Assembly: GCF_030013595.1 (NCBI RefSeq)
Contig: NZ_CP122768.1
Length of the DNA stretch: 64,000 bases
Strand: one strand, 5' to 3'
Origin: Escherichia coli
GTDB taxonomy: Bacteria > Pseudomonadota > Gammaproteobacteria > Enterobacterales > Enterobacteriaceae
In this document: piece by piece, positions 3,561 to 58,898 of the stretch
Position numbering within the stretch: position 1 is the first letter of the stretch
Layout of the letters: every line of letters begins with the position of its first letter
The notes under the pieces: generated by a model
The model's database searches: none
What the model was told of the DNA's origin: nothing
The model's input: the letters and a program-made list of their open reading frames with translations, nothing else
Program-made: the position numbers and the translations under genes

Positions 3561-4415
3561 TCAGGGTGCAAGCTGTCTGACCCTTTCCCGATATTCTCCC
3601 GGAGTACAACCAAACTCGCGGACAAACGCCTTGTGAAAAGATGATTCACTGGCATAGCCTACTGACTCAGCGATCACCACAACAGGGAGCGTTTCCCGGG
3701 AAAACATCTGGGCCGCTATTTGTAGACGCAACTTTGTTAATACAGCTAGCGGCGTGGTTCCGGAAACATCACGGAAAAGCTGGGCAAAACTTGCCCGGGA
3801 CATGTGGGCGATGCTGGCCAGCGATTCGACGGTCCAGGCATGTCCTGGCATTTCCAGCATTTGCTGTATTACCGCACCAAGACGTGGATGCAGAAGCAAA
3901 CTGAGAATGTTTTTCTCTGTATTAACCTGTGCAATCCACTCACGCACCGCGAGGGTAAAGAATGTAGCGCAGATCTGGCTACACAGAGCATCCACTCCCG
4001 GCATTGCCGATCTGGATTCCTGTTGTAAAAACGGGATCGCCTCCCTCAGCCAGTTATATTCCACGCTATGGTTCACTGGTGCTACAAACAGCGTTTCCGG
4101 CAAAGACGTTAAAAAATAACGCGCCGAATGTTGCAGCCGAAGAGTGCCACAGACAATACAGGTCGATTCATTATCGACATGACTCAGGCGATGAGCTGAA
4201 TTTTGTGGTAGCAGGACCACATTTCCCGGGCGTAATGTAAAAATCTCTCCCGTCGGCATTTCCAGCTTCGCCGCTCCTTGCGTTAACGCATGCCAACGAA
4301 TAACCGACAATTCCCCGGCACCATGTGGAAGTTGCCAGTCACTTCCTAACACGCAATTCTTATCGATCGTTCCTTGTGGAGCGTTAAGCATCAACAAACG
4401 GCTAAGAGCATCCAT
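3561..4415 (-). CDS. rclR: AraC-family reactive-chlorine regulator RclR (284 aa)
   Basis: C-terminal AraC HTH; divergent from rclA; length matches RclR. Confidence 0.8.
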   Translation of the reverse strand: MDALSRLLMLNAPQGTIDKNCVLGSDWQLPHGAGELSVIRWHALTQGAAKLEMPTGEIFTLRPGNVVLLPQNSAHRLSHVDNESTCIVCGTLRLQHSARYFLTSLPETLFVAPVNHSVEYNWLREAIPFLQQESRSAMPGVDALCSQICATFFTLAVREWIAQVNTEKNILSLLLHPRLGAVIQQMLEMPGHAWTVESLASIAHMSRASFAQLFRDVSGTTPLAVLTKLRLQIAAQMFSRETLPVVVIAESVGYASESSFHKAFVREFGCTPGEYRERVRQLAP

Positions 4416-4641: not shown

Positions 4642-5862
4642 ATGAATAAATATCAGGCAGTGATTATTGGTTTTGGCAAGGCTGGAAAAACATTAGCCGT
4701 CACGCTGGCAAAAGCAGGTTGGCGTGTGGCTCTCATCGAACAATCAAATGCAATGTATGGCGGGACCTGTATTAATATCGGCTGTATCCCAACCAAAACA
4801 TTGGTTCATGACGCACAGCAGCACACAGATTTTGTCCGTGCCATACAGCGTAAAAATGAAGTGGTTAATTTTTTACGTAATAAGAATTTTCATAATCTTG
4901 CGGATATGCCCAATATCGACGTGATCGACGGCCAGGCGGAGTTTATCAATAATCATAGCCTGCGTGTTCATCGGCCTGAGGGAAATCTGGAGATTCATGG
5001 CGAGAAAATTTTTATTAATACCGGTGCACAAACCGTGGTTCCGCCAATTCCTGGAATTACCACCACGCCTGGTGTATATGACAGCACCGGATTACTTAAT
5101 CTAAAAGAATTGCCTGGGCATTTAGGTATTTTGGGCGGCGGATATATTGGCGTTGAGTTCGCCTCTATGTTCGCTAATTTTGGCAGCAAGGTAACCATTT
5201 TAGAAGCAGCTTCGCTGTTTTTGCCTCGGGAAGATCGGGATATTGCTGATAATATCGCGACGATTTTACGCGATCAGGGCGTCGATATTATCCTCAATGC
5301 CCATGTGGAGCGAATCAGTCACCATGAAAATCAAGTGCAAGTGCATAGCGAGCACGCCCAACTGGCGGTGGATGCACTGTTAATAGCTTCCGGTCGTCAA
5401 CCAGCTACCGCTTCGTTACATCCAGAAAATGCCGGTATCGCAGTAAACGAGCGCGGGGCAATTGTCGTTGACAAGCGATTACATACCACCGCAGACAATA
5501 TTTGGGCGATGGGAGATGTTACCGGCGGGCTGCAATTTACTTACATATCACTAGATGATTACCGCATTGTACGTGATGAGTTACTGGGTGAAGGCAAACG
5601 TAGTACTGATGATCGGAAAAATGTGCCTTATTCCGTATTTATGACACCGCCCCTGTCCAGGGTTGGTATGACAGAAGAACAAGCCAGAGAGAGTGGTGCT
5701 GATATTCAGGTGGTGACATTGCCTGTAGCTGCAATTCCGCGCGCCAGAGTGATGAACGATACCCGTGGGGTATTAAAAGCGATTGTTGATAATAAAACCC
5801 AACGTATATTAGGGGCATCACTGCTGTGTGTTGACACGAGAGTATTCAAAACACGCCAATAA
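4642..5862 (+). pseudogene. rclA: rclA (pyridine nucleotide-disulfide oxidoreductase), 5' portion; reading frame leaves native sequence after ...LLCVD (about 5835) and ends in element-derived codons TRVFKTRQ*
   Basis: GFGKAG Rossmann motif, CINIGCIPTK redox-active disulfide; K-12 RclA is 441 aa, here first 398 aa then insertion. Confidence 0.8.
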
Positions 5863-5903
5863 CCTCTTGATTCAATTGAAGTCGAAAATTTTAAGTCAAA
5901 AAT

Positions 5904-5929
5904 CGTATAGCTTAACGTGTAGCTAAAAA
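5904..5929. repeat. Sub-terminal repeat cgtatagctTaacgtgtagctaaaaa (left copy), probable integrase-binding/att-associated site
   Basis: Near-identical copy at 16432-16457 (1 mismatch). Confidence 0.55.
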
Positions 5930-6479
5930 TGTTTGCTGCAAAAGTATACAATTTTAACCGTTATGACTCCCTGTTATCCGTTATCAAGCTGGTGGATGAT
6001 CATGGATAACCCGTTATGGGAATCCCCATATCGGCATCAGGCCCATGCCATAACAAAAACCCCATATTCGTGGGTTTTCTGTGTTGTGGCTATTCTGCCG
6101 TTGCCGTGCTGGTGGATATTTCCGGTATGTGGCTCACCATATCGGCATCACGCCCACCAGCGCGACGCATTTTTTTAATTTCGCGGGTGTAAAAATTTGA
6201 CGGGGCGGGCGGTCCTATAAGCAATGGGGGGTAGGGATTTCGATCCCCCCTCCTGAATGCAATTTTCCGTATGTGGCTGTGCGGCAATCATACTCGTCAC
6301 ATGTTTTTGACAATAAAAGGCCCGACCGTGAGACTCACAAACAAAAAAGTTACGGAGAAACAGGGGATCGGGCTCGGTTGCCGCTAAATCTATTCAATTA
6401 AAAGAAGATGTCAATAGGGAAAACGAAAAAAAACAATGCTGATATTGTCATAATTTGAACAAAACCACTATATGTAGTT

Positions 6480-6710
6480 TTAGTTCATGAGGTTAGTCGC
6501 TACCAGATGCGTCAATAGTTTTTTGCTATTAATAATCCCTCTTTTTCCATCGGGAGCTTTGCACTTGTCACTACCTGGTAACTCCTGGTGGCGTTCCTGT
6601 TGCAGCACAACGGAAACAGGCGCTGAACACCTGTTAATTTTGCTTGCAGGTTGTTTGATTTCGGCAATGCTGCGGATCATCTCCAGCATATCGGCTTCGG
6701 TGATGGTCAT
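6480..6710 (-). CDS. Hypothetical small protein (76 aa) in satellite
   Basis: ORF only; lies just beyond the cos-like repeat block. Confidence 0.25.
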   Translation of the reverse strand: MTITEADMLEMIRSIAEIKQPASKINRCSAPVSVVLQQERHQELPGSDKCKAPDGKRGIINSKKLLTHLVATNLMN

Positions 6711-6718
6711 GATTTACA

Positions 6719-6995
6719 CCTTAGGAAATCTTAGGGGCTGGTTGACACTTTCCGGCTTAAGACCTTAACAAATCTTAACATCGCAGGTTGACACACTTGA
6801 CACTTTTTCGCGAAAAACCTTATCAAACCTTAGCATTTCTAAGCATGGCAACTTGACACTTTTCGCGATTTTTTCGGCTTTTTGACGTGGTAAATCTGGC
6901 GCAAAGCCAGTAACGGCGGGGTTTACAGCGAGGTTGACACTTTTTCGCGTTCAGAGTGTAAAGTGTCAACCTGGCAAGCTGCTCAACTTGACACT
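6719..6995. repeat. Cos/pac-like repeat block: at least 6 direct copies of TTGACAC(TTTT) (6742, 6788, 6797, 6853, 6934, 6988) plus one inverted copy (6963) interleaved with CTTAnnAAAnCTTA repeats
   Basis: Repeats counted directly; adjacent to TerS-like gene. Confidence 0.5.
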
Positions 6996-7003
6996 TTTTG
7001 AGG

Positions 7004-7531
7004 TCATTGATGGCCTGATTTTTCCCACTCAGCCAGGGCGTTTAGTCCGGCTTCACTCCAGTTATCCAGCTCATCGGGACAATCACCTGCAACATAGCAG
7101 AGCTCACAACGCAGCATACGAATTGCCAGCCTGGCATTTTCCCGAAAATCATACTGCTCAAAGTAATATTGCCCAGCATAATCCTCAAGGCAGATAGCAC
7201 CATCATCAAGAAATTGCACTTCACAGCATAGTTCCCCGGCTGCATCCTGTACACGCTGCTGTATGTCATTGTCCGTTACTGGTGCAGGGATTTTACCGTC
7301 TCTGGCCTTAACTGCTTTCCAGAACTCGCCCCACGTCATTTCCAGCGTTCTCTCTGGCCACATTTCAGAAACGGTATCTTTTCCCTGTGCTGGTGGGCTG
7401 TTCCGCTGCTCTGTCGCTTCCACATCGATTTTTTTACCGGACATGACCACTTCGCCTTTCTCGATCCAGTCGTAAACTGTCTGGCGGCTTACGCCTTTGT
7501 GTTTGGCATATTCTGCCTTGCTCATAAACAT
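7004..7531 (-). CDS. Terminase small subunit-like protein (Nu1-type N-terminal HTH); candidate packaging-redirection protein (Rpp-like)
   Basis: N-terminus KAEYAKHKGVSRQTVYDWIEKG resembles lambda Nu1 HTH; no large terminase or capsid gene in element. Confidence 0.55.
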   Translation of the reverse strand: MFMSKAEYAKHKGVSRQTVYDWIEKGEVVMSGKKIDVEATEQRNSPPAQGKDTVSEMWPERTLEMTWGEFWKAVKARDGKIPAPVTDNDIQQRVQDAAGELCCEVQFLDDGAICLEDYAGQYYFEQYDFRENARLAIRMLRCELCYVAGDCPDELDNWSEAGLNALAEWEKSGHQ

Positions 7532-7701
7532 GACACTTCCCCTCAGACTGTATTAATGCGCCGGAAAGCGCGTGTATTTAAATCATCCCAGGAACCGTTG
7601 AGCACCAATTAGTTGCGCGAAGTAATCGGCACCAGCGTTCCGAACAATTTCCAACTTAACGTTCTGATCATTGTTTCCTGCTGCAGGGACAATCCCACGA
7701 T

Positions 7702-8355
7702 TCATAGCCAGCGCCCGGATATTTCTTCCAGTTTTTCCAGAGCTGGCTTGCAGGCCGCATCAATAACTTCACGGACCATTCCGGCGAGCTGTTCTTCTTC
7801 TGTCGGCGTTGTTACTTCCACACCTGATGGTTTCCCGCCCTTATCCCATACGCCCAACGGTACGAGCGCAACGTGATCGATAAGAAATGGCGTACCCTCA
7901 ATGAAAAAATTGTCCTCGCCCATTACATCAGGAACTTCTGCCCCACCGGACGCACCACAAAACACAACCGACGGGCTGGTGGATACCTCCCCCCGTGCTT
8001 TCTGGATGTAATCGATGATTTCCTGCCCGTAAATCCGGCATACGCCCCACACCTCGTCACCGCGAATATACGGCAACATGACGGTGCCAATAATGCGCGA
8101 CCGTTCGCCCACGTCTTCAAGGGTTTTGCTTTCGGGATGGTCGATAATGACGGGTACTCCGGCGCAACGTTCCAGGAACTGCGGATTGAGATAAGTTTGC
8201 GGTGAACGCCAGACAAATTCTTTTTCTTCGGCGCGATAGGCCATTCCGGTTCCTGTGATACGCAGGTTAATCAGCCACATGTTGGAAAACTGATAAGGCG
8301 ACGGTAGCTGACCGTCCCGAATCTGCTTTGCCGCCTCAATTTCTGTTAAAAGCAT
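7702..8355 (-). CDS. Hypothetical protein (217 aa), satellite morphogenesis/packaging region
   Basis: ORF with coding-like composition; no motif recognised. Confidence 0.45.
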   Translation of the reverse strand: MLLTEIEAAKQIRDGQLPSPYQFSNMWLINLRITGTGMAYRAEEKEFVWRSPQTYLNPQFLERCAGVPVIIDHPESKTLEDVGERSRIIGTVMLPYIRGDEVWGVCRIYGQEIIDYIQKARGEVSTSPSVVFCGASGGAEVPDVMGEDNFFIEGTPFLIDHVALVPLGVWDKGGKPSGVEVTTPTEEEQLAGMVREVIDAACKPALEKLEEISGRWL

Positions 8356-8419
8356 AATGTCCCCCGGTTATAAGCAATAAGCCCCACCAAATCCGGCAGG
8401 GCTGAAATCAGCACGTTTT

Positions 8420-9013
8420 TCATGCCCCCGCGAGGCTTGCAACGTTAATTTTAACCAGGCGACGGGGAGGGATTTTGAAAGCACTAAGCCAGTTATTCGG
8501 ATCCCCCTGATATTCAGTAATCCGCCGTCCGGCTTCATCCATTCTTACGGTTTTACGCAAATAGCCCGGCGTATTTTCCACAGCCCACTGAACACTGTCT
8601 TTTGCAGCCTGGTAAATCTGATCTTCCAGCACCGCCAGCGTTGCAGAATCTGAAACGGAACGAATATCCACATCACTGAATTTTTTAGCCAGCTTCTGTG
8701 CACCAATTAATGCACGCTTGCGGTAATCCATCGACTTTTCACCAGCAAACGGGGCTGGAGCGCGACGGCCCATATTGCTGTATGCGGAATCCGCTTTAGC
8801 CTGGGCTTCTGCCAGTGAGGATTCATCTTCGACTGACGCGACGATGTTTTTATTCGCGTCATCCTCGTCCGCTTTTGTGAAATCCTGTGCGGGGATCGCA
8901 TTCAGAATTTCGATAATCTCCTGCGGAGTGCTGCCCTGCGACTCTGACAGAGCGTTAACCACCTCCATCAGTTTTAATCGCAAATCTTCTTTGCTTGCTG
9001 GCATTTTTACCAC
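8420..9013 (-). CDS. Hypothetical protein (197 aa), acidic and Ala/Glu-rich, scaffold-like
   Basis: ORF; composition resembles phage scaffolding proteins (inference only). Confidence 0.4.
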   Translation of the reverse strand: MVKMPASKEDLRLKLMEVVNALSESQGSTPQEIIEILNAIPAQDFTKADEDDANKNIVASVEDESSLAEAQAKADSAYSNMGRRAPAPFAGEKSMDYRKRALIGAQKLAKKFSDVDIRSVSDSATLAVLEDQIYQAAKDSVQWAVENTPGYLRKTVRMDEAGRRITEYQGDPNNWLSAFKIPPRRLVKINVASLAGA

Positions 9014-9043
9014 CTCTCTTTTTTCACCAAAAAATCACGACCA

Positions 9044-9241
9044 TCAGGCCGGACGTTCTACGGGATAAAGCGCCCGCTGCATTAAACGCCGGGCGACCTC
9101 ATGAATGCTCGGAGCAATCCCCAGCGGAGAATTGCGGCGTTCCTCGTCCTGGATGCGCTGTAATGCTTCAATCTGATCACGAGCGAGTAAAACGGGTTTC
9201 ACGCTGGCTTTTCTCATAGTCATATCTCCTGAACAAAACAA
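9044..9241 (-). CDS. Hypothetical small protein (59-65 aa)
   Basis: ORF between PerC-like gene and the 197-aa gene. Confidence 0.3.
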   Translation of the reverse strand: MFCSGDMTMRKASVKPVLLARDQIEALQRIQDEERRNSPLGIAPSIHEVARRLMQRALYPVERPA

Positions 9242-9418
9242 TGATTATGATTGCACAAACTGAAATAACGATCTACATCATTGCAATTTATGAAACAATA
9301 ACGCATGATGATCGCGTTCTTCCCATTGACTTCAATCACCTGAAAAACAAAGCCCGCAACACTTCTGGCTGCGGGTTTTTTACTGGCACAAAAAAGCCGG
9401 GAAAAATCCCGGCCTCCG

Positions 9419-9706
9419 TCACTGACTGCAATTTTTCGATCCAGGGTATTTCCTGAATGCCTTACCATTGGGCTGATGTAATCCCATCCCGGCATGTGCC
9501 CGGCTGATGGTTTCGCGCATTTCCCCGAAATTATCCTGCCTTGCTGGTGGGCGTGCTGCCTTGCGGATACATTCCGCGCGACGTTTTGCCGCCTGTTCCC
9601 GTGCCTTGTCATCATTCGCCAGCATGATGACCTCAGCCCACCGCGCCGCCGCTCTCCGGTACAGACCACGCGCTTCCAGTGCTTCCGCTTTGCTGTCGTG
9701 AATCAT
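9419..9706 (-). CDS. PerC-family-like transcriptional activator (95 aa)
   Basis: Small basic protein with N-terminus MIHDSKAEALEARGLYRRAAARWAEV typical of prophage PerC homologs (from memory). Confidence 0.45.
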   Translation of the reverse strand: MIHDSKAEALEARGLYRRAAARWAEVIMLANDDKAREQAAKRRAECIRKAARPPARQDNFGEMRETISRAHAGMGLHQPNGKAFRKYPGSKNCSQ

Positions 9707-10245
9707 GCGCCTGTTTTCTCCTTTGCTGCCCGGCGCTGACGTTTGCGCTTCTCATTCAGCGCCACCAGCCGCGTTTCTGCGTCCTGTTGTTCCTGTGGTG
9801 TCACCTCGCCGCACGGCTGGCCTTTCAGGTCGTAGCGTACCCCACCAGCCATTAAGGCGCGGTAATAGCGCGGACACTGCGCATAAGATGCCAGCGTCGC
9901 ACGCAATGCCCCTGGACCGAATGCCAGCCCCCTGACGGCGAGATCCTGCATCAGGTCGTCGAATATCCCCACCTTAAGCGGCTTCGGTGCTTCCCGGCTG
10001 AATAATTCAGGCCACAACTCAGTGAGGCGGTTAACGCGCCTGCGGTTTTTGCGCTGGCGTTTGGTCATATGCCGCCACGGTGTCGCCCCTGTGGGCTTCT
10101 GCTGCGCTTTCTGGTTACCGGGCATCACTTTATGCGCCGATGTGGTTTTATCCTGCTCCTGCGCCGCCTGCGTCGTTTTCTGCGGCGTGCCGTAAATGCC
10201 TTTCGGTTTTCTGTTAATGGTCAGCTTAGTCATGCTTTGCCCCAT
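9703..10245 (-). CDS. ProQ/FinO-domain RNA-binding protein (180 aa)
   Basis: PKPLKVGIFDDL ... YAQCPRYYRAL ... RYDLKGQPCGEVT matches ProQ/FinO N-terminal domain pattern; K/R-rich tail. Confidence 0.6.
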   Translation of the reverse strand: MGQSMTKLTINRKPKGIYGTPQKTTQAAQEQDKTTSAHKVMPGNQKAQQKPTGATPWRHMTKRQRKNRRRVNRLTELWPELFSREAPKPLKVGIFDDLMQDLAVRGLAFGPGALRATLASYAQCPRYYRALMAGGVRYDLKGQPCGEVTPQEQQDAETRLVALNEKRKRQRRAAKEKTGA

Positions 10246-10392
10246 CGTTTTTACTGGTTGCTACGTTGCCCAACGGCACTGACACAACATTCTGTTTTCA
10301 TTTTTAACATTCCTGATTTTTTAATTCCTCACCTGCTGCACAGTGAAAATTTATGAAGTTAATAACAATATGATTTTAAATGTATTTTTAAG

Positions 10393-10713
10393 TACTCACT
10401 TTTTAATCCTTATATATACGCAAAAGTGAGGTAAATAGTTAAGTTTTAGTTAATATCTTGCATGGTGTGTTTTTTAACCTACCTGTTATTTTTATTACCT
10501 CATTTCTATTAACTCACCATTCCTCACTTTTGTTCCTCACTTTTTATTATTCTTGTTCTGCTCCTCAGTCGTTTTCTTTATTGTTGTAATCTGTTGTTTT
10601 GCAATGTGTTTTTAACTCCTCACTTTTTGACCTATATACAGGTGAGAAAGTGAGGAGTGGCGTTGATTTTTTGTTAAATTACCCGCCATCCTCACTTTTG
10701 CTCCTCACTTTTT
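10393..10713. repeat. Iteron-type replication origin: at least 7 copies of CCTCACTTTT (direct and inverted) in AT-rich DNA immediately 3' of rep
   Basis: Copies at about 10395, 10421 (inv), 10522, 10534, 10617, 10645 (inv), 10691, 10703. Confidence 0.6.
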
Positions 10714-12127
10714 ACAGTGGGCGCACATAATCACCGTCAATAGCGATTACGCCGTCGCTTTCCAGCTTGTACAGCCAGCGCCGGAAGTTTTTCATTTCAT
10801 ACCCCAGCTTTTTCATATCATCGCGGAGAAGGGCGATAGTGCACGCCTCCCCGTGTGCTGTTCGCGTTCTGATGCACTGCCATAGCGCAGCGTGATTTTC
10901 CGTCTTGTTCCCGGCCTCCTCGATGCGTTCCAGTTCAACAGGTGGGCGCGGCTTATCCACAACCACCAGCGACGTGATTAACTCCCCGTCAGTGTCGGTA
11001 AAAAGCTCCACCACGCGTAAATCATATGCAGCCTCTTTCAGTTCCTCCGCGTCCTTCATTTTGGTGCAGGAGATAACCAGGGCTTCACTGTCCGCACCTT
11101 CACGGCGAATACGGTATTCAGCGTCCAGAGATGCACGAAATGCACTGGAACCACGCGCCCCTTTTGTTTCATCCTTGCCGGAATGGTGAACCACCAGTAC
11201 CGTGGCCCCTGTGCGTCGTTTCAGTTCGTCACATCCACGGATAAACGCCCCCATATCCCGCGCGTCATTTTCATCATTACCGCCAAAGCAACGCGCCAGC
11301 GTATCCAGAATAATCATGCGTACCGGTTTACCCGTTTCCCGTTCAACCTGACGGGAAGCGATGACCATTTCATCAACATCAAGCGGGACCGCCGGAAAAA
11401 TCGGGCGGTTTACCAGGTACAGATTTTTCACCCGTTCATCATTAACGATTTCCCATGCTTTGATACGACGAGGAACACCGATCCCGCCCTCACCAACGAC
11501 ATACATAACCGCACCATGTACAACCCTGCGACCTCCCCAGTGGCGACCAGTGGCAACATGACACGCCCAGGAACACGCGAGGAACGATTTATAGGAACCG
11601 CTCGCGCCGTATGTGCTGCACAACGAATTAGCCGGAATCACGCCCTTAACGACATAATCAAGCTGTGTGTCGTATCCTGCAGATCCAATACTCATTGGTA
11701 GCGTGGTTTTTCGCTGGCTGTATTGCTCGTCAGTAAGTATTTCCCCGCGCTCTGCCTGTTCGCGGATCCGTTGCAGGTAGTCGTGCCAGTTCTCCAGCTT
11801 CTGGCTGTGCATTCCCTCAGGGTAATAATTCGCATCCCGTACACCTGCCGCCGCCAGTTTTTGCCCGATGGCATTAATATTTGACGGCTTGATGTGGCCT
11901 GCCTTGTACAGCCGGACACAATAGCGACCATCGTCGATAATTTTCAGGTCTGCCAGTTCGTCAAGCTGGCTGTCTCCCAGCCATACAGGCGGAACATTGT
12001 CGCCAGCAAGTCGCCCGTCCTGTTCCTGCCATTGTTTCGCGTGCGCCCAGGCATCACTACCCGCAAAAATAATGACTTCGGTCATTTTGTCGTGTGGCTG
12101 TTTTTTTAAGTTCGGTGCCAGTTTCAT
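10712..12127 (-). CDS. RepA-like replicative helicase / AAA_25-type ATPase (471 aa)
   Basis: Walker A GASGSYKS, Walker B MIILDTL, VVHHSGK; adjacent iterons. Confidence 0.7.
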   Translation of the reverse strand: MKLAPNLKKQPHDKMTEVIIFAGSDAWAHAKQWQEQDGRLAGDNVPPVWLGDSQLDELADLKIIDDGRYCVRLYKAGHIKPSNINAIGQKLAAAGVRDANYYPEGMHSQKLENWHDYLQRIREQAERGEILTDEQYSQRKTTLPMSIGSAGYDTQLDYVVKGVIPANSLCSTYGASGSYKSFLACSWACHVATGRHWGGRRVVHGAVMYVVGEGGIGVPRRIKAWEIVNDERVKNLYLVNRPIFPAVPLDVDEMVIASRQVERETGKPVRMIILDTLARCFGGNDENDARDMGAFIRGCDELKRRTGATVLVVHHSGKDETKGARGSSAFRASLDAEYRIRREGADSEALVISCTKMKDAEELKEAAYDLRVVELFTDTDGELITSLVVVDKPRPPVELERIEEAGNKTENHAALWQCIRTRTAHGEACTIALLRDDMKKLGYEMKNFRRWLYKLESDGVIAIDGDYVRPL

Positions 12128-12423
12128 TTTGTGCCCCTGAATGCGTTAATCATGTTTTTCATTTTCTGAATATTTGCCCGTGCCTTTGCGTTGCTGGTGG
12201 GCTGTTTGCGTGGTGTGGCCTGTATCAGTGAAAAATCACGCCGGAACTGATAAACAGGCATCACGCAGTCGTAGCTGTACCCATCACGGCGGTAAGTAAC
12301 GCACCGTCCGGCAATACTTTTAATCGTTACCGTGCCGCCGTAGTTATCCCGGAAAATATCGCCGGGGCGGATTTCAGGCCGAGGGAGACCACTGGCAGTA
12401 AAGCCAGAATTTTTCTTTTTCAT
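12124..12423 (-). CDS. Hypothetical protein (99 aa), translationally coupled to rep (4-bp overlap)
   Basis: ORF; operon packing. Confidence 0.45.
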   Translation of the reverse strand: MKKKNSGFTASGLPRPEIRPGDIFRDNYGGTVTIKSIAGRCVTYRRDGYSYDCVMPVYQFRRDFSLIQATPRKQPTSNAKARANIQKMKNMINAFRGTK

Positions 12424-12427
12424 GGTT

Positions 12428-12628
12428 TTATTTTCCTGTCAGCAGTTCCGGTTTTATTTCCGCACGAATACAGAGTTCAGAAAAAAATTCAGGAGAACCA
12501 ACAATCTCATTACTTTTCAGTCGGCATTGTGATTTCACTTTCCCTTTATCCAGGTAAACCAGTATGCGTCCGGTGAAATCATCTGGCACACTCAGGGTAA
12601 TTGTCATTGTTGCTTGCTGATTATCCAT
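12428..12628 (-). CDS. Hypothetical protein (66 aa) with one FTG-x-LV repeat unit
   Basis: Shares about 50-aa repeat with upstream 121-aa protein. Confidence 0.4.
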   Translation of the reverse strand: MDNQQATMTITLSVPDDFTGRILVYLDKGKVKSQCRLKSNEIVGSPEFFSELCIRAEIKPELLTGK

Positions 12629-12986
12629 GATTCACCCCCTGAATAACCTGATAACCGCAACTGGTCAGCAATTCGATAAATTCCGGCAGTGTTCCGAAAC
12701 AGCAATCATCTCGCAGCCGTTCTCGGGATACTTCAACGCCGTTTTCGTAGTGACTCACCATGCGTCCGGTAAAATGCAGATCATCATCGTGATGGCTCGT
12801 TAACGGCTTAATCAGTCGCGCACGTTCTGCCAGCTCCAGCAATGCTTCAACGCTTCCGGCAATTGCACCATCCGGCAGGTGATAATTACTTGCCACGCGT
12901 CCATTCTCCACGTTAACCAGTAGCTGCCCGGTGAATTTCTCATCAAACTGAATGCTGTTAAGGTCAGAAATTGACAGGTTAATCAT
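12621..12986 (-). CDS. Hypothetical protein (121 aa) with two internal FTG-x-LV repeat units
   Basis: Internal duplication visible in translation; 8-bp overlaps with neighbours. Confidence 0.45.
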   Translation of the reverse strand: MINLSISDLNSIQFDEKFTGQLLVNVENGRVASNYHLPDGAIAGSVEALLELAERARLIKPLTSHHDDDLHFTGRMVSHYENGVEVSRERLRDDCCFGTLPEFIELLTSCGYQVIQGVNHG

Positions 12987-13344
12987 GGCGTACCTCCTGG
13001 CGAATACGGGCAGCGAATACCATCACGCAGCCATCAGGAGATTGCTGGCGTGCTTCCTGTTCGCTGGTGGCCACGATGTGAATCACGCGCGGTTGTGCGG
13101 TGCTCAGGGCGATAAAACGCCAGATAAAATTGTTTTCGCATTTCTGAATAAACAGCGTGTTTTCTTCGCGCCCTTTCCATGTTGCCGAGATATAGCCCAT
13201 GCCATTGAGCATCTCGCAGGCATCAACCAGCGTATCAGCGGCTACGTGTACAGTGTTTTTACCGTCAGCTATGCAATCACGGTGCACCGCCAGGAAGGTG
13301 TATATAAATTTAGGGTGAGTTTGGGTATGCTGTGTTCCAGCCAT
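12979..13344 (-). CDS. Hypothetical protein (121 aa); first gene of alpA-distal operon
   Basis: ATG at 13344 with AGGT RBS; the 478-aa ORF-track extension to 14415 is judged spurious. Confidence 0.45.
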   Translation of the reverse strand: MAGTQHTQTHPKFIYTFLAVHRDCIADGKNTVHVAADTLVDACEMLNGMGYISATWKGREENTLFIQKCENNFIWRFIALSTAQPRVIHIVATSEQEARQQSPDGCVMVFAARIRQEVRHD

Positions 13345-13545
13345 AATCGTTACCTCATTTAACGGTTTGGTTAGAAGCCCCGTTACTGCTCCAACAGTGC
13401 GGGGCTTCGTCGTTTCAATTGCTGAATTGCATGTATCAGCCCTTGTGGTATTCAGATTACATTTTGGTGAATACCATTTCAAGTCTTTTTTGGTATTCAC
13501 TTTTGTATTACACTGCATCCCGTTATTAATCGGAGGTGCAAACAT

Positions 13546-13849
13546 GTCCACGAGTTCTGTTAACAATAAGTCACAGCAACTGAATGCCAGATTTCCACAT
13601 GAAGTAGTGAGTGGCATTGAGGCATCCCTACAGCCAGGGGAAACTAAAGCGAATTTTATAGTTACGGCTGTACGCGGTGAGATCGCCCGCCGCCAGGCAG
13701 AAGGAAGCGGAGAAAACCCCCTGGTTTCTTCGCTCGATGCGCTGGCGCAGGTGGAAAAAATCGGAGTCAAAGCTGCCGAGGAGATCGGGCAGCTCGTCAC
13801 CGTCGCACGTGAAGAACTCCAGCGCCGCAAGGCCAAAGAATCAGAATAA
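13546..13849 (+). CDS. Putative ribbon-helix-helix-like DNA-binding protein (101 aa), divergent from the rep operon
   Basis: GGAGG RBS; inverted repeats TGGTATTCA / TGAATACCA at about 13445-13500 upstream. Confidence 0.4.
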
Positions 13850-13906
13850 TAACTATCATCGCCGTGGTGTGAGGAACTCCGGCGCATTGCTTTACAGGTA
13901 CACAGA

Positions 13907-14107
13907 ATGACCAACAAAGAATCAACCAAAACACCATCACCAACCCGGAAGAGACGTCGCAAAAATATGACGCACGAGCATGAATCAGACAGATTCGCGC
14001 CGTGTGCGTTTGTCCTTGAGACGTTCCTTAAAGAGTACAGGCGCACAAAATTAGGGCCACATACCTGGAAAACATCGCGACATAGCGATATTAAAGAGCA
14101 GGAATAG
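13907..14107 (+). CDS. Hypothetical small basic protein (66 aa)
   Basis: ORF downstream of RHH-like gene; R/K-rich N-terminus. Confidence 0.3.
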   Translation: MTNKESTKTPSPTRKRRRKNMTHEHESDRFAPCAFVLETFLKEYRRTKLGPHTWKTSRHSDIKEQE

Positions 14108-14240
14108 CCCACCAGCAAGTCAGCATATTCACCATAATGACCCTCGGTTAAACCTAGAGTCATTGGTGCAAACCTGACACATTGCCCACCAGCCAGCAAA
14201 TCGCTATGATATTTGGGCTTATGTTTAGTGTTTTCCCATT

Positions 14241-14268
14241 GGCGACCGCCCCCGGTCGCCTTTGTTTT
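14241..14268 (+). terminator. Rho-independent terminator (GGCGACCG-cccc-CGGTCGCC + T-run)
   Basis: Perfect 8-bp stem followed by TTTGTTTTG. Confidence 0.55.
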
Positions 14269-14321
14269 GCCCGTTATCCGGCAATTGTGGCGCTTCGCCA
14301 CACGGTTGATATAATTCCCCT

Positions 14322-14392
14322 GCACTGATCCATTTTTTTCGCAGCAGGTTAATTGTTCGCAAGGGCGCTCCGGCAACGGGGCGCTTTTTGTT
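14322..14392 (+). ncRNA. Candidate ~70-nt small RNA: extended -10 (TGaTATAAT, 14307-14315) to terminator hairpin 14361-14389 with GNRA-like loop and T-run
   Basis: Promoter-like element and terminator ~70 nt apart in a 310-bp non-coding gap, convergent with alpA 3' end. Confidence 0.3.
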
Positions 14393-14419
14393 ATGTTCAT
14401 CGCGTTACGCCTCACACCA

Positions 14420-14626
14420 TTACGCAGCCGTTCCGCGCGCTTCTTCCTCGCGCTCTTTCAGCCAGGCCAGCACTTCATCTTCATACCAGCCAACACGACG
14501 CAGACCGATTTTGAAGCCTTTCGGGAATTTTCCGGCGTTGATCATGTCCTGTAGCGAACTGTCTGCCTTGATGCGCAGAATATTTTTTACTTCCTGACGG
14601 GTAAGTATTTTTCTGATTGTTTCCAC
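14420..14626 (-). CDS. alpA: AlpA-family transcriptional regulator (68 aa)
   Basis: Typical AlpA/Vis-like size and HTH (LRIKADSSLQDMINAGKFPKGFKIG) next to integrase. Confidence 0.75.
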   Translation of the reverse strand: METIRKILTRQEVKNILRIKADSSLQDMINAGKFPKGFKIGLRRVGWYEDEVLAWLKEREEEARGTAA

Positions 14627-14690
14627 TATGTTTTACCTCGTTAATCCGGCGTATTCCGGTGATAAATACGGTAAAACAGGGCAGGGCGGG

Positions 14691-14732
14691 AAAAACAGTA
14701 CCCACCGTTTTAAAACGGTACCCACTGTTTTT
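14691..14732. promoter_or_regulatory. Tandem operator-like sites AAAAC(A/G)GTACCCAC(C/T)GTTTT x2 upstream of alpA
   Basis: Two 20-bp near-identical units in the alpA promoter region. Confidence 0.4.
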
Positions 14733-14795
14733 ATCTCATTGATTACGCTTTTCTTTCTGCAAAAAAATAGCGACCGCAAAGGGCCGCTATTGTGA

Positions 14796-15026
14796 TTACC
14801 GTTTCCACTTCTTAGGTCGCCCACCGCATTTAAGGCTGGTGGGCCTCAGCACCTTGTCGATGCTTTCAGCCAGATTTTTCGATGCACCACGCGAGCGCAA
14901 AAAACTGACTACCTCGTGTTTTGTGGGGGCTGTTGATTTGTCTTCCGGATCGTATGTTGACCAGAATTCACGATTTGCCATTAACGCCAGTTGCAGCCCT
15001 TCGCCGTAGGCGGTGGTATTTTGCAT
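14796..15026 (-). CDS. Hypothetical small protein (76 aa) between int and alpA
   Basis: ORF only. Confidence 0.25.
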   Translation of the reverse strand: MQNTTAYGEGLQLALMANREFWSTYDPEDKSTAPTKHEVVSFLRSRGASKNLAESIDKVLRPTSLKCGGRPKKWKR

Positions 15027-15124
15027 AATAGAATTTTCATATACTCCGGCCTTGTCGTTAAATTTGTGGCAATTATACGATGGTTTGGCATGGTTTGCAT
15101 CGCTTTTACTGGCTTTTTGTACAG

Positions 15125-16366
15125 CTACACGGCACGGATACCCCTTTTACCGCTGGCTATGGTCACTCCGGTAGCTGCAGCCTCCACAAATTCACCCCAC
15201 CAGCGCATAAGCACCACGCGCTTTTCCAGGTAGTTACTTCGGTTATATGCCCGCCTTACCTCGTTCGTGTCCACGTGTGCGAGTGCGGCCTCGATTACGT
15301 CCGGTTCGAATCCTTCCTCGTTCGCTGCTGTGCTGAATATGGCGCGTAATCCGTGAGACACCAGCACACCAGCGTAACCCATCCGGCGTAATGCAGCGTT
15401 AGCGGTCTGGCTGCTCATTGGCAGCATCGGATTTTTAAGGCTGGGAAAAACGTGTTCCCTGTGTGCGCTGATTGGCTTCATGGTTTCCAGTACAGCCATA
15501 GCCTGACCGCAAAGGGGGATCACATGGTCACGGCGCATCTTCATGCGTCCGGCTGGAATCGTCCAGGTTTCGGCATCGAGATCTATTTCTTCCCAGCGTG
15601 CGGCGGCTGCTTCGGCTGGGCGTGCTACGGTCAGCAGTTGCCACTCAATCAGCAATCTGGTTTGCCGTTCTATGCTGGCGACCGATAAATCGTGCATTAG
15701 CTGCGGTAGCTGTTCCGGTCGGATGGTTGGCATGTGCTTTTTGGTGGGTGAGGGGAATGCCTTGCGGACGTTCGCGGCGGTGTTGATGTCAATCAGCCCA
15801 CTGTTGGCGGCAAAATCCATCACTTCATTGATGCGCTGCAAAACGCGTTTCAGAGTTTCCAGGTTGCCGCGTGCTTTAATGGGGGTGAGTATCTCAACAA
15901 AGCGGCGAGCGGTGAGGGTATCTATTGGCGTGTTTCCGATGTACGGGAATACGTATTTTTCCAGGGATCGCCAGATATCCTTAATCGTGTTGTAAGCCAG
16001 ATTCTGGCCTTTTTTCATCTCGTACCAGTCCGAGGCAACTTTTTCGAACGTGTTGCCCTTTTTCCGGCTCTCTGCTTCACGTTTCCGGCGTTCATGGTCC
16101 TGTGGGTCAGTTCCCTTTGCTATTAGTGACCTGTATTCATTCCGTCGCTCTCTGGCATCAGACAGGGAAACATCATTCAGCGATCCAAGGCTGATAATAG
16201 TCCGTTTTTTATCTGCCGGGCGGTAGTACGTAAAACGCCATATTTTTGATCCGGAGGGCTTCACCAGAAGAAATAATCCTCCGCCATCCTGCAGGGTGTA
16301 TTCCTTTTCCCCTGGTCGTGCGTTTTTGATCTCCGTAATGGTTAGTGGGGTGGTTTTTCGTGCCAT
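15125..16366 (-). CDS. Tyrosine site-specific integrase (P4-type, 413 aa)
   Basis: N-terminal arm-binding-like region and C-terminal catalytic domain (HGLRAIFST ... R..Y); adjacent repeat cluster. Confidence 0.85.
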   Translation of the reverse strand: MARKTTPLTITEIKNARPGEKEYTLQDGGGLFLLVKPSGSKIWRFTYYRPADKKRTIISLGSLNDVSLSDARERRNEYRSLIAKGTDPQDHERRKREAESRKKGNTFEKVASDWYEMKKGQNLAYNTIKDIWRSLEKYVFPYIGNTPIDTLTARRFVEILTPIKARGNLETLKRVLQRINEVMDFAANSGLIDINTAANVRKAFPSPTKKHMPTIRPEQLPQLMHDLSVASIERQTRLLIEWQLLTVARPAEAAAARWEEIDLDAETWTIPAGRMKMRRDHVIPLCGQAMAVLETMKPISAHREHVFPSLKNPMLPMSSQTANAALRRMGYAGVLVSHGLRAIFSTAANEEGFEPDVIEAALAHVDTNEVRRAYNRSNYLEKRVVLMRWWGEFVEAAATGVTIASGKRGIRAV

Positions 16367-16380
16367 GTTTTTTTACCCAT

Positions 16381-16457
16381 CGGTAGCTATATGCCTGGTC
16401 GTAGCTATACGGCTTTAGCTACACGCTGGACCGTATAGCTAAACGTGTAGCTAAAAA
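16381..16457. repeat. Integrase-proximal repeat cluster (GTAGCTATAC / CGTATAGCTA / CGTGTAGCTA inverted and direct units) including right copy of sub-terminal repeat (16432-16457)
   Basis: Matches left copy at 5904-5929. Confidence 0.55.
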
Positions 16458-16509
16458 ATCCGGTTATAACCCTATCTTACCGATTCAATCCGGCGACTGA
16501 AAACAACAA

Positions 16510-16543
16510 AAAAGCCCGTTAATCAGTAAATTAACGGGCTTTC
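16510..16543 (-). terminator. Hairpin AGCCCGTTAAT-loop-ATTAACGGGCT with T-run on minus strand
   Basis: 11-bp stem; on the minus strand followed by TTTTTTGTTGTTTT. Confidence 0.4.
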
Positions 16544-16555
16544 AATAGGTTACCG

Positions 16556-16710
16556 ATGCTGTCCGATATTCAATTTGGTCGGCACGAGATGATCAATATA
16601 GTGAAAATGGTGATGGATGCCGGGCTGCCTTATAGCATATTACGCGATCAGATATTTACTCATCCGTCGATGAGCGAATCACTCAATGATCTATTTTCAT
16701 TAGTCAAATA
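16556..16710 (+). pseudogene. rclA: rclA 3' remnant encoding ...HEMINIVKMVMDAGLPYSILRDQIFTHPSMSESLNDLFSLVK*
   Basis: Matches remembered RclA C-terminal dimerisation region; in-frame ATG at 16556 is element-derived. Confidence 0.7.
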
Positions 16711-16819
16711 AACTCAAAATCAGACGCCAGAACAAATATTCTGGCGTCTCAGAGAAAAGAATCTTATTAATTCCCTGTTACTTTATAACTTCTTAATCAC
16801 TTCATTGATGGTATTTTAT

Positions 16820-19915: not shown

Positions 19916-22900
19916 TTATTTCATCGCCTCCTCGCCCTTTGCCGTATCGGCATCCACCGCGGTAATGGTCACCGTCACTGGCTTCATTTCGTACCCGCCA
20001 TACGTCAGGGCGTTAAATGTAAACGTATAGACACCTGGCTTGTTGGTACTAAATGTACGCGTGATTTTTCCGCTCACGAAATGGTCATTTTTCGACGGCA
20101 GGAATTGATAATCCTTCTCCGTCACTCCTTCCGGCGTCTGAATGTCGACCCACACATTCCCCCCAACAGGGTTATTTGCCGAGAACAGGGTCACCTCCAG
20201 CTTCGCAGTCGATTTCCCATCCGCCACCAGCGATTGCACATCAGATGATGCGGTGAGCTCCGCGTTTTTATCATCCGCGACGAATTTAGATTCGGCAGTT
20301 TTCGTTGATACCTGACCGTTGGTCTGACTCACTTGCGCCTTGAGTGTGTATGTCGCCGCAACAGTAGTGGTAGCGGTGAAAATAGCCTGCCCTTGCTCAT
20401 TCGTTGTCGCAGTGCCATTCGGTTCCAGGTTTAACGAAGCCGGGCTGGCAGTCAGCGTCACTTCGCTATCTTTCACCAAATTCTTATTGGCATCAGTCAC
20501 CGTAACTTTATACGTTTGTTTGGCTTTGCCGTCCGCCAGTGCATAGTTGCCAATCACCTCAATACCGGAGACGGTTGCGGTAGCCTTATCGGCTACAAAC
20601 GTTATAGTCTGCGTATTCGAAGGCTGGCTATTCCCTGCCGATGCCGTGATCTCATACGTTCCGGCAGTCACTGAAACCACCTGCAACTCTGCTTTCCCCT
20701 CATCGTTGGCTTTCACCCAGACATTATCGCCTGTAAGCGGCTTGACACCCCGAGGCAGATTAAAGGTCACCAGAGTTCCTGGAACAGGGTTACCGTTTTT
20801 ATCCTCAACGGTCGCCGTCAGCGTAAAGGCATCTTTGCCGTTTGCCACTTTTTGAACGGCGGTGTCTACCTGCAGGTTTGCCTGACCGGTGCTGGCATCC
20901 GCGTTGAATTTCACCGTGACCGTCTTCTGAGAGTTTTTCACCGCGGCCGCGATTTCAAGTTCCCCTGCAACGGTTGATATCAATTCAATATCCGCTTTAC
21001 CTGCCGCATTGGTTGTTACTGTATTCCCCGTCTTGCTAGTCACACCCTGCGGTAAAGTCAGCGTAACTTCTTGCCCCTGCAACGGGTTACCATAGCTGTC
21101 CACGACGGTCAGGGTTACCTGGTTAGCAGACTGTCCATTTGCCAGTTGGTTATTCACCTTCACCGCCATATCACTGATCACTGCCCGGGAAGCGTCGCCT
21201 GCAACATTCAGCACCAGTGGCTGAGCAACGGCATTTTGGCCGTTCACTCGCGGCATCACAGACAACTGACCCGCGGCAGATCCCAGCGTTAAGGTCGCCA
21301 CGTAGACCCCATTACCTTTCTCTGTCCAGTTTCCTGCTGAAGGACGCTCACTCCCCGTGCTGGCGGCACCGCTAAACACTGGTGCATCTGGCTTCAGCCC
21401 GGTGACCGGGTTCCCGTACGCATCCTTCACGGTGAAGGTGAGTTCCGTCGTCGTTTTAACCGTTGGAGTCTTATTGTCCGCAACAAGCGTAGAGTTCGCT
21501 GATGACATCTCCCCGGCGATGACCGTCAACTGCGCGGCTTCGGTGGCTGCTGGCTGGCCGTTGAAGAGAGGCATGACACGAAGCTCGCCCGTCTTTCCGC
21601 CTGTGGTCAACGTAGCAACATAGGAACCGTCACCTTTTTCGGTCCAACTGGAAATAGTCGCCCCTTCAGAGGCGGTCCCCGTCAAACTTGCCGACAACGA
21701 AAGACCACTGATAGCGTTGCCATGCGCATCTTTCGCCACCAGCGTCACGGTTGTGCTTTCGCCGGCTTTTACGCGATCTGCGGCTACAGACACTGTCGAC
21801 TGGCCTGAAGATAACGCATCAGCCACCACGGTTACTTTTGCCGCGTTTGCTGCCGCATCCTGTCCATTTAGCTTCGGCATAACTTCTAATTCACCCGCCG
21901 TAGAGCCGAGAGTAATCTGCGCAGTCCACGTCCCATCACCATTATTTGTCCAGCCAGATGCCGTAGAACCTACAGCAGCGGCACCCGCTAATGACGGCGC
22001 TTCCGGCGTGAGGCTGGTCACAGGGTTGTCATTGGCATCTTTTGTCGACCAGATTGCCGTAAGCGTACCGCCGACCACCGGTTTATCAGGATTCAGTGTG
22101 ATGGACGAATGTGCTGCATCAAGCGGCCCGGCAACAAACTTCAGCGTTTGTTGTAATGTGCCCAGCTGATACTGCTCGCTGAAGGCACGCACAACAACGT
22201 TTCCGGCACGGGTCGAAGAAACCGTGGCGCTGTAAACCCCTAGTTTTATTTCCGAAATGGCACCAACGGTTACACCATTAGTGTCTTGCGGAACAAGTCG
22301 CAGGCGGCTGGCTTCTCCCGTCACCGGATTACCCTCGGAGTCCACCGCTGTCAGTGTCAGCGTGTAGGCTTGCTGACCATCAGCAACCACATCACCTGAC
22401 TGCTCGTTAGCGCTCAGGGTGGAGTTTGCCACATCCATCATCGTGGCCCGCAGTTCTGCAGTGACAGTTTTGCTCATGTCATCAACGCTAACAGTAATCG
22501 TTGCCTCACCTGACTGCGTTCCGGTAGTAAAGACAGACTGATACACCCCTGCTTCAGTTTCGGTGAACTCACCCAGTGTTGGCTTTGCCTGTGATTTAGT
22601 GGCCTTCAGGGTACGAGTCACAATATTTCCAGCCGGTTTGAAGGTTAGTTCAGTCTTGATCTGATCTTTCATGCCCGTGACTGGCTGGCCCTCGGCGTCG
22701 CGCAGAGACAGCACCAGCGGCTTTTGCTCATTACCGTTAGCAAGCATTTGAATACGGCTCTGACCGTCAAGCGTTAACACCGTACGATCGGCGCTCATAC
22801 CAGCTCCGCTAATAACCACTTCTGTCTGCACACGTTTCGAGGCATTGCCTTTGTTATCGTAGGCAATCGCTGAAATCGCATAATAATTGTCTTTGCCTGC

Positions 22901-30489: not shown

Positions 30490-31101
<612 letters not shown>

Positions 31102-31175
31102 ACTCCAGGCAAGTTAGTTTTAAAAAATGACTCACAGGGACATCACGTCCTCAATTCAACTCGGGAAGAAAAGCA

Positions 31176-31763
31176 ATGAAAAAAAAGGTTCTGGCAATAG
31201 CTCTGGTAACGGTGTTTACCGGCATGGGTGTGGCGCAGGCTGCTGACGTAACAGCTCAGGCTGTAGCGACCTGGTCAGCAACAGCCAAAAAAGACACCAC
31301 CAGTAAGCTGGTTGTGACGCCACTCGGTAGCCTGGCGTTCCAGTATGCCGAAGGCATTAAAGGTTTTAACTCACAGAAAGGTCTATTTGACGTAGCTATC
31401 GAGGGTGACTCAACGGCTACCGCCTTTAAACTGACCTCACGTCTTATCACCAACACCTTAACCCAGTTGGATACCTCAGGTTCCACACTGAATGTGGGCG
31501 TTGATTATAACGGCGCGGCAGTCGAAAAAACTGGCGATACCGTGATGATCGATACCGCCAACGGCGTACTGGGCGGCAACCTTAGCCCACTGGCTAACGG
31601 TTACAATGCCAGCAATCGTACCACCGCACAGGATGGTTTCACTTTCTCCATCATCAGCGGCACCACCAATGGTACCACCGCAGTAACCGATTACAGCACT
31701 CTACCGGAAGGCATCTGGAGCGGCGACGTTAGCGTACAGTTCGACGCTACCTGGACCAGTTAA
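31176..31763 (+). CDS. ecpA: E. coli common pilus major subunit EcpA/MatB (195 aa)
   Basis: Signal peptide; sequence matches remembered EcpA. Confidence 0.9.
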
Positions 31764-31818
31764 TCTCTCTGATGTACCAGCAGGGGTCCCCCCTGCTTTA
31801 TTCCTGGACGGAATTGTT

Positions 31819-32487: not shown

Positions 32488-32506
32488 ATAGCTGTGCAGA
32501 TGGATA

Positions 32507-38025: not shown

Positions 38026-38059
38026 CTATAATCGCGGGGCTTCGTTTTTCAGGGATAAC
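38026..38059 (+). terminator. Terminator after ykgJ (GCCCCGC ... GCGGGGC + T-run)
   Basis: Stem-loop with TTCGTTTTT. Confidence 0.55.
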
Positions 38060-38241
38060 AAAACCCGAAACTTCTTCCATCTGCCAGCAACAATGCCTCT
38101 TCCTCTATAGTGTTCTCCGGATCTACAGCATCCTGAAGTAGCGCGATGTACTCATTGGCTATCTGCATCAGAAAGTTAAAAACAATGTTTTTAACCTATA
38201 AAAATGGCGCTTTATTTGCGCCATTTTTATCATTCAATGCA

Positions 38242-58681: not shown

Positions 58682-58898
58682 CAGCTTTTCCTTACAGAGG
58701 GTGAATAAAAAAGCCGGTACCCACAAATATGGGTACCGGCAGGTACAAAACAGCATGGTCAGATAAAGTGGTTTTTCCCGGACATAAATGCTTCTCCTCT
58801 CTCATCCGCCAGAGAAGTATCAGTCCGTTGTGTGCAATTCCGTTCTGCATGATGAAGAGATTCAGCTGCCTTTTCGCAGACCATTAACCACTATAAAC

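Follow-up and report, generated by a model that had tools for sequence, protein, structure and literature searches.

A phage-inducible chromosomal island with a tRNA-Pro-type integrase in the Escherichia coli rclA gene

In a 64,000-nucleotide stretch of Escherichia coli DNA (contig NZ_CP122768.1 of RefSeq assembly GCF_030013595.1; the whole stretch is referred to here as the window), the reactive-chlorine resistance gene rclA is divided by 10.75 kb of foreign DNA that resembles a phage-inducible chromosomal island (PICI), a type of phage satellite. The locus raises the question of why such a satellite is found within the coding sequence of a stress-defence gene, and whether rclA is its own attachment (att) site. 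Our analysis indicates that the insert is very probably a PICI of the E. coli group with an integrase specific for the 3' end of the tRNA-Pro gene (proL, located by yejM), and that this PICI has integrated off-target in rclA. A preliminary description, made from the sequence alone, had proposed a PICI-like satellite within the 3' part of rclA, and this identification is upheld by gene content and order that match those of the island EcCICFT073, by protein domains and by a cos site copied from a phage. What the same description missed is that rclA is not the element's own site, as indicated by the presence of the same integrase and the same arms at proL.

Insertion into rclA and its junctions

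The insert divides rclA at window positions 5835/16583. On the upstream side, the rclA reading frame, for which an upstream ATG at 4615 offers an alternative start, is 99% identical to the RclA crystal-structure sequence 6KGY as far as ...LLCVD at 5835, after which the fused open reading frame (ORF) runs through eight foreign codons to a stop at 5862. This reading agrees with the preliminary description, in which rclA was intact to ...LLCVD, was followed by approximately 10.7 kb of foreign DNA and resumed at 16583. When the two rclA halves are joined, they match across the junction in 5,092 of 5,426 complete RefSeq E. coli genomes, whereas most of the insert is found as a single stretch in only four of these genomes. 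Because the empty site is near-universal and the insert so rare, the DNA between the rclA halves is an insertion and not core DNA shared by all E. coli, which had been named as the finding that would overturn the proposal.

The repeat noted earlier at both junctions as the hexamer CACGAG is indeed present at each, but is really the 7-mer CACGAGA, and its only two plus-strand copies in the whole window are those at the junctions (Table 1). Likewise, the 26-bp sub-terminal repeat described near both ends of the element is present as reported. Native rclA reads GTTGAC TCC CACGAGA TGATC at the site, whereas the left junction in the window reads GTTGA CACGAGA GTATTC, such that four bases beside the core are gone. 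A computed crossover between the two cores gives a product that is 4 nt short of native rclA, with a frameshift and a stop after ...VDTR. Hence, the expectation that the joined halves would restore a clean site holds for the uninterrupted site in other genomes but not for an intact rclA in this one; the earlier join had counted the C at 5835 twice, and so seemingly stayed in frame minus one codon (Ser). With these 4 nt absent from the left junction, the gene that excision leaves behind would be out of frame, and for this reason excision would probably not restore it in the window strain.

The preliminary description had also held that rclA is not a standard att site, and it is in fact absent among the eight E. 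coli PICI sites listed in Table S1 of PMC6092414. Among the papers searched, none was found to link rclA or ykgC with PICIs, satellites or integrases.

The integrase target and recurrent insertion into rclA

Where the element belongs is indicated by its integrase and the arm adjacent to it. The window integrase is identical at 412/413 positions to WP_000101918.1, a protein that occurs both at tRNA-Pro and at rclA in other genomes, and in three rclA insertions the integrase is residue-for-residue identical to a proL-borne one. Furthermore, the closest relatives of the element, 96-98% identical over 84-86% of the query, are located between yejO and yejM by tRNA-Pro and not in rclA. At the integrase-side end, TGGTCGGCACGAGA represents the 3' end of tRNA-Pro (TCTCGTGCCGACCA) in reverse complement, and the attR core makes up its last 7 nt; the junction sequence TTTGGTCGGCACGAGA corresponds to this tRNA end, with no difference from the arrangement at the tRNA gene. 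A terminator within the same arm has the same sequence as one beside tRNA-Pro in ETEC4077; at proL it would be expected to end the tRNA-Pro transcript, and in rclA it would be useless. Native rclA has in common with tRNA-Pro the 7-bp CACGAGA plus scattered flanking bases only, and the element is without any replacement for the rclA 3' end. Given that the tRNA-Pro 3' end and terminator are retained, that no rclA 3' end is supplied and that little beyond CACGAGA is shared, the sequence evidence indicates that the integrase is specific for tRNA-Pro and has used rclA as a secondary, off-target site. In mechanistic terms, the integrase would have recombined the attP of the element with CACGAGA in rclA to yield the two junctions, and the circular attP would read ...TTTGGTCGG CACGAGA GTATTC....

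This reading is in keeping with what is known of PICIs at this tRNA gene. Those first assigned to yejM have been remapped by the Williams group to tRNA-Pro, with an identity block CTCTCGTG (PMC10111431). The group, which includes EcCIED1a.1, EcCIATCC25922, EcCI11128 and EcCI11368.1 (PMC6092414, PMC10111431), shares with the window element the integrase family (approximately 78-83% identity to the ED1a/TW08637 type, the ED1a comparison having been made through TW08637-type and ETEC4077-type relatives), the crossover block CTCTCGTG/CACGAGAG, a size of 9-12 kb, arm repeats of the GTAG(C/T)TATAC kind and variable deletions at the integrase-distal junction. The window copy differs from the group in that it is located in rclA and has the GTAGCTA variant of the arm repeats.

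In order to judge how often rclA is used, we surveyed the integrase family in the 5,426 genomes and found 447 copies in 434 of them, with the best copy showing at least 95% DNA identity to the window type in 86 genomes; in 112, proL holds an element of this arm type. Only five of the 447 copies (∼1%) are rclA insertions, to which the window adds another. Four of these five have the window type of integrase, and three of the four are in genomes in which proL is filled. The five carry mutually different cargo, some having capsid and decoration genes with TerS and others primase or RepA, and one has an integrase that is only 83% identical. As cargo, integrase and flanks (1-2% difference between the window and its closest relative, ETEC6335) all differ, rclA has been hit several times independently.

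Repeated use of rclA, by two integrase types as dissimilar as these, is also what would be expected if rclA were a dedicated primary site to which a sub-lineage of the integrase had switched from tRNA-Pro. We regard this as highly improbable, because the integrase of three rclA insertions does not differ at all from that at proL, the arm still carries a tRNA-Pro 3' end and terminator that serve no purpose in rclA, no substitute for the rclA 3' end is present, and rclA accounts for so small a share of the copies.

A second alternative is that the window copy is not an independent integration but came with its flanking rcl DNA from an ETEC6335-like lineage, by inheritance or by import through homologous recombination or transduction. 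The rclA copy of ETEC6335 is the closest over most genes, at 95-99.5% identity in blocks, and the left junctions of the two are a single C apart. This is nevertheless unlikely in view of the divergence of the flanks and the replacement of several segments between the two elements (6283-6737, 10249-10592 and 13126-14340); moreover, the unrelated cargo of the other four rclA insertions means that the site was hit several times in any case. ETEC6335 itself (NZ_CP122588.1) contains two closely related PICIs with the same integrase protein, an rclA copy at 3934220-3946510 and a proL copy at 1730871-1742047.

Off-target integration is known elsewhere. Lambda is the paradigm of secondary attachment sites in temperate phages. 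As with lambda and with the off-target events of helper-embedded PICIs (HE-PICI), the same integrase is found here at a rare site that shares the crossover region and may be used when the normal site is unavailable; unlike them, the site is a chromosomal stress gene that has been hit repeatedly. For HE-PICI, off-target integrations have been reported, whereas none were found for 2,701 fis/hpt PICIs, and none are described for tRNA-Pro PICIs (PMC10111431). The filled-proL pattern, which is correlative, is in line with use of rclA once proL is occupied.

The rclA insertions also provide a view of the deletions left by PICI integrases. Among the six insertions, the integrase-distal junctions have lost 0, 0, 1, 3, 3 and 4 bases beside the core, whereas the integrase-proximal junctions are intact in all six. 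In nine genomes sampled at proL, the corresponding losses are 0, 0, 1, 2, 2, 4, 4, 4 and 4 bases, and every deletion abuts the left edge of CACGAGA. The predicted excision products of the six rclA insertions are intact rclA in two, an in-frame loss of Ser399 in another two and a frameshift in TW08637 and the window. Variable junction "damage" of this type is reported to be limited to PICIs among the islands studied and is perhaps adaptive (PMC10111431); for damage to the displaced tRNA fragment, that paper cites Williams 2002. What is seen at rclA resembles the tRNA phenomenon in that deletions of variable length extend from one fixed position by the crossover, at the integrase-distal junction only, and differs in that the target is a protein-coding off-target without any tRNA fragment. 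The 4-nt loss in the window would then be the same damage that PICI integrases leave at the tRNA site. Because the same pattern is seen at a gene that does not encode a tRNA, it is possible, although we hold this tentatively, that the deletions are made by integration as such, at any target, and do not result from selection on a redundant piece of tRNA.

Several points weigh against this interpretation of the locus or some part of it. The 4-nt deletion in the window might have arisen by later mutation, or be an artefact of sequencing through a homopolymer, the difference from ETEC6335 at the left junction being that one C. The co-occurrence of proL and rclA insertions could reflect shared exposure to satellites and not competition for a site; the proL of the window genome lies outside the window, so that the rclA carriers counted as filled at proL are other genomes, and they do not include MFDS1022581 or TW08637, the latter a genome with a second integrase copy. 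The weak similarity of the flanks does not account for the choice of rclA over the hundreds of other CACGAGA sites expected in the genome. Finally, loss of rclBC expression, considered below, is deduced solely from the absence of a consensus promoter.

A scan of metagenomes for the rclA left junction with the pattern CTGTGTGTTGAN{0,5}ACGAGAGTA found no true junction, and a right-junction scan of IMG/VR gave zero matches. The sole metagenome match, RBWB01040662.1 at 1150-1503, is a chance match to an unrelated CRISPR array with the repeat CAGCCGCCTTCAGGCGGCTGTGTGTTGAAAC.

Organization and relatives of the satellite

Gene identities in the insert were assigned from PHROG, NCBIfam and Pfam matches and from the RefSeq names of homologues, and were compared with the traits of Gram-negative PICIs given by Fillol-Salom et al. 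2018 (PMC6092414), in which the islands are small, at approximately 8-15 kb. Of these traits, the insert has a length of 10.75 kb, an integrase gene at one end, AlpA, RepA with iterons and a cos of helper type. All of the listed genes are on the minus strand apart from ylcI/ynfO. The P4-type integrase, AlpA and the RepA-like helicase with its iterons, all named in the preliminary description, are each supported by domain or repeat matches. No PHROG or NCBIfam match to capsid, portal, tail, lysis or TerL was found among the insert genes. Consequently, the absence of capsid and large-terminase genes reported earlier stands, with the reservation that one gene of head-morphogenesis type, with a prohead-protease fold, is present. 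This protease-fold gene occurs alone, capsid, portal and connectors being without a match, and the insert is therefore not of the capsid-forming type (cf-PICI), in which the island supplies its own capsid, portal, protease, head-tail connectors and TerS.

A P4-like satellite or the decayed remnant of a prophage might also be considered, since the insert has in common with P4 its integrase type, AlpA and an Icd-like gene, and several genes are unannotated. We find this scarcely credible: Psu, Sid, Delta and the alpha primase are all without a PHROG match, the cos belongs to the phiP27 and not the P2/P4 type, the gene order is collinear with that of EcCICFT073, and the insert has no tail, portal, lysis or large-terminase genes while all of its core genes are intact.

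Identification as a PICI is strengthened by the extent of the parallel with EcCICFT073, the reference island for Gram-negative PICIs, which has been studied by experiment. Both have the order int, alpA, opposite-strand ylcI/ynfO, icd-like, small ORFs, DUF4222, replicase, perC, late module and cos; identity is 53-73% for the DUF4222, Icd-like and PerC proteins, the match of AlpA being partial (60% over about one third of the protein), and in both the cosN is copied from a helper with the adjacent region divergent. The differences are that the integrase is unrelated (25% identity), EcCICFT073 using the ycfD-phoQ att site; that the window element has a RepA helicase in place of a full primase; that its late module encodes protease-fold and 197-aa proteins where EcCICFT073 has capsid-like and decoration-like genes; and that its cos is of the phiP27 type and that of EcCICFT073 of the lambda/phi80 type. 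By analogy with EcCICFT073, a helper would induce AlpA, followed by excision, RepA-dependent replication from the iteron origin and packaging through the phiP27-type cos.

Features of the window are listed in Table 1. The repeats in the two arms are likely arm-type integrase binding sites, as judged from the Arm-DNA-bind_3 domain of the integrase. A 478-aa ORF at 12979-14415 was rejected as a gene, being a mechanical read-through of the Icd-like gene. None of 16 ORFs compared matched a PADLOC model for a defence system. ARAGORN detected no tRNA gene in the element or in the 64-kb window, and no credible Rfam family is present in the element. In the remainder of the window, Rfam matches at gathering score were IS009, STnc490 (an Hfq-binding small RNA) and IS102 RNA, at 38036-38236, 55344-55467 and 58700-58936, respectively; otherwise this DNA has the appearance of normal E. 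coli chromosome. There are long ORFs at 19916-24169 and 30559-37350, but no sign of a prophage was noticed.

Table 1. Features of the rclA locus and of the inserted satellite, in window coordinates
Feature	Position	Strand	Remarks
rclR	3561-4415	minus	Part of the rcl locus
rclA 5' fragment, codons 1-398	4642-5834	plus	Last codon shares its C with the core
attL crossover core CACGAGA	5835-5841	plus	4 nt of rclA (CTCC/TCCC) missing immediately left
Sub-terminal 26-bp repeat, left (P') arm	5904-5929	plus	GTAGCTA motifs; 25/26 identical to 16432-16457
Two copies, 111-120 bp apart, of a repeat pair of 20 + 35 nt	5978-6161	plus	80% and 83% identical; terminase-small-subunit side of cos
cos region	6174-6215	plus	42 nt identical to phage phiP27, including the annotated 10-nt cos CGGGGCGGGC at 6201-6210
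Small ORF, 76 aa	6480-6710	minus	No family match; coding status uncertain
TTGACACTTTTT repeat cluster	6742-7003	plus	Dense, direct and inverted; between the 175-aa protein gene and the 6480-6710 ORF
Winged helix-turn-helix (wHTH) protein, 175 aa	7004-7531	minus	N-terminal winged helix like excisionase and terminase-small-subunit DNA-binding domains
DUF2213 protein	7702-8355	minus	Fold of phage/herpesvirus capsid-maturation proteases
197-aa protein	8420-9013	minus	Sole match is to C-terminal part of phrog_6216, same phage family as the DUF2213 gene
Hypothetical ORF, 65 aa	9044-9241	minus	Also kept in ETEC4077 and ETEC6335
PerC-family transcriptional activator	9419-9706	minus	phrog_994, phrog_10396; RefSeq homologue name
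ProQ/FinO-family RNA-binding protein	9703-10245	minus	Below curated cut-offs; RefSeq homologue name
Iteron cluster TCCTCACTTTT	10387-10714	plus	Both orientations; immediately downstream of repA; putative origin of replication
RepA-family replicative helicase, satellite replication initiator	10712-12127	minus	phrog_2850, E 2.5e-248
DUF4222 protein	12124-12423	minus	68% identical to EcCICFT073 homologue
Two small paralogous ORFs, 66 and 121 aa	12428-12986	minus	phrog_340
Icd-like domain gene	12979-13416	minus	NF033153, E 1e-22; RefSeq marks homologue partial
YlcI/YnfO-family gene	13544-13849	plus	Sole opposite-strand gene, as in EcCICFT073
AlpA, activator/excisionase-type helix-turn-helix	14420-14626	minus	Pfam Phage_AlpA, E 5.5e-8; PHROG match
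20-bp unit, repeated and palindromic	14691-14732	plus	Upstream of alpA; candidate operator
Conserved 76-aa hypothetical gene	14796-15026	minus	Between int and alpA
P4-type tyrosine integrase	15125-16366	minus	Arm-DNA-bind_3/Phage_int_M/Phage_integrase; NCBIfam PRK09692, 558 bits
GTAGCTA(T/C)A repeat cluster	16384-16457	plus	Integrase-side (P) arm; includes second 26-bp copy
Terminator	16510-16543	minus	15-bp stem
TGGTCGGCACGAGA	16576-16589	minus	Reverse complement of the tRNA-Pro 3' end
attR crossover core CACGAGA	16583-16589	plus	Second junction repeat
rclA 3' fragment, 42 codons + stop	16583-16711	plus	Separated from the rclA promoter and start
rclB	from 16805		Downstream of the insert
rclC	from 17059		Downstream of the insert

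The preliminary description had placed a TerS-like gene next to cos-like repeats, but the real cos is at 6201-6210, approximately 800 nt from the gene. Similarity to phiP27 ends on the side where the phage has its terminase small-subunit gene, and it is here that the repeat pairs at 5978-6161 are found, each copy of which holds a Chi site; the proL-borne ETEC4077 relative has a single unit (L001 3144-3211). In EcCICFT073, cosQ and cosN match the helper and cosB differs (PMC6092414), and the repeats in the window element are a candidate for a satellite-specific cosB. Because the cos region is identical over 42 nt, the helper is likely to be a phage of the type of phiP27, a Stx2e phage, in keeping with the isolation of many carriers from pigs, poultry and food. 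The head and packaging module of phiP27 is common to SfV, SfI, ST64B and e14 (PMC3636060).

The gene described earlier as TerS-like encodes the 175-aa wHTH protein. Its N-terminal DNA-binding domain does resemble that of terminase small subunits; assignment to the terminase family was rejected, because the match is confined to ∼42 N-terminal residues (phrog_57, E 5e-7), Pfam gives weak helix-turn-helix matches only, and no homologue named by its source is called a terminase. The C-terminal part is an alpha/beta domain with no assigned family. Possibly, the adjacent TTGACACTTTTT repeats are binding sites of this protein, or else a run of -35-like boxes. In the DUF2213 protein, H73 and S127 are invariant and H161 is nearly so, and distant homologues of 340-370 aa (P0036-P0053) are fused to a NUDIX hydrolase domain. 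The ETEC4077 homologue of the 197-aa protein is named "NUDIX hydrolase" by RefSeq, and Pfam detects no NUDIX domain in the window copy; a possible role for this protein is that of scaffold partner to the DUF2213 protein. Sequence searches of the PDB found nothing for either of the two. Copying of the late proteins from helper genes was also considered and rejected, as BLASTP of all three against the protease, TerS and capsid of phiP27 gave no similarity. A reasonable guess is that the protease-fold, 197-aa and wHTH proteins are candidates for redirection of the capsid or of packaging.

The most frequent 8-mer in the element is the recombination hotspot Chi (GCTGGTGG), with 15 copies in 10.75 kb (8 plus, 7 minus; window 5988-15204) and five copies in the other 53 kb of the window. 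A fifth-order Markov model predicts 4.6 copies in the element, and the maximum of 300 simulations was 12. The density of Chi is 0.8-1.7 sites per kb in related PICIs, EcCICFT073 among them, and 0.6 per kb in the late region of phiP27. Polarity of Chi relative to cos was considered, and no orientation bias was visible. Enrichment of Chi may protect linear satellite DNA from RecBCD; a literature search combining Chi sites, RecBCD and PICI found nothing apart from one general review.

Consequences for the rcl operon and for the PICI family

The truncated RclA is without the last 43 residues of the enzyme in structure 6KGY, and the insert places rclB and rclC at a distance of 10.7 kb from the RclR-controlled rclA promoter. 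No consensus promoter was found between the right junction and rclB. From this arrangement, the reactive-chlorine resistance conferred by the rcl operon is probably lost. More speculatively, RclR-driven transcription from the rclA promoter may read into the island and link chlorine stress to the behaviour of the satellite.

The element itself is of an ordinary, known kind, and what is new, the secondary site in rclA and the damage there, adds modestly to what is known of these islands. The rclA insertions newly document that tRNA-Pro PICIs have repeatedly entered a stress-defence operon off target; in the literature searched, off-target events had been reported for helper-embedded PICIs and not for chromosomal ones. 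Junction repeats alone would mislabel such an insertion as a new att site, and it is the tRNA 3' end and terminator borne on the arm that show the cognate site. As their target is no tRNA, the rclA insertions constitute a natural control for junction damage. If integration does indeed cause the deletions, scarring would be an intrinsic property of this PICI integrase family, off-target insertion would turn from a reversible into a permanent knock-out (two of the six excision products are frameshifted and two more lack a codon), and there would be a direct handle on the proposed idea of addiction by site damage. The phiP27-type cos ties this satellite group to the Stx2e-phage-like helpers of porcine strains, and in the strains that carry a PICI in rclA, mostly from pig, poultry and food, RclA-dependent hypochlorite resistance is probably missing.

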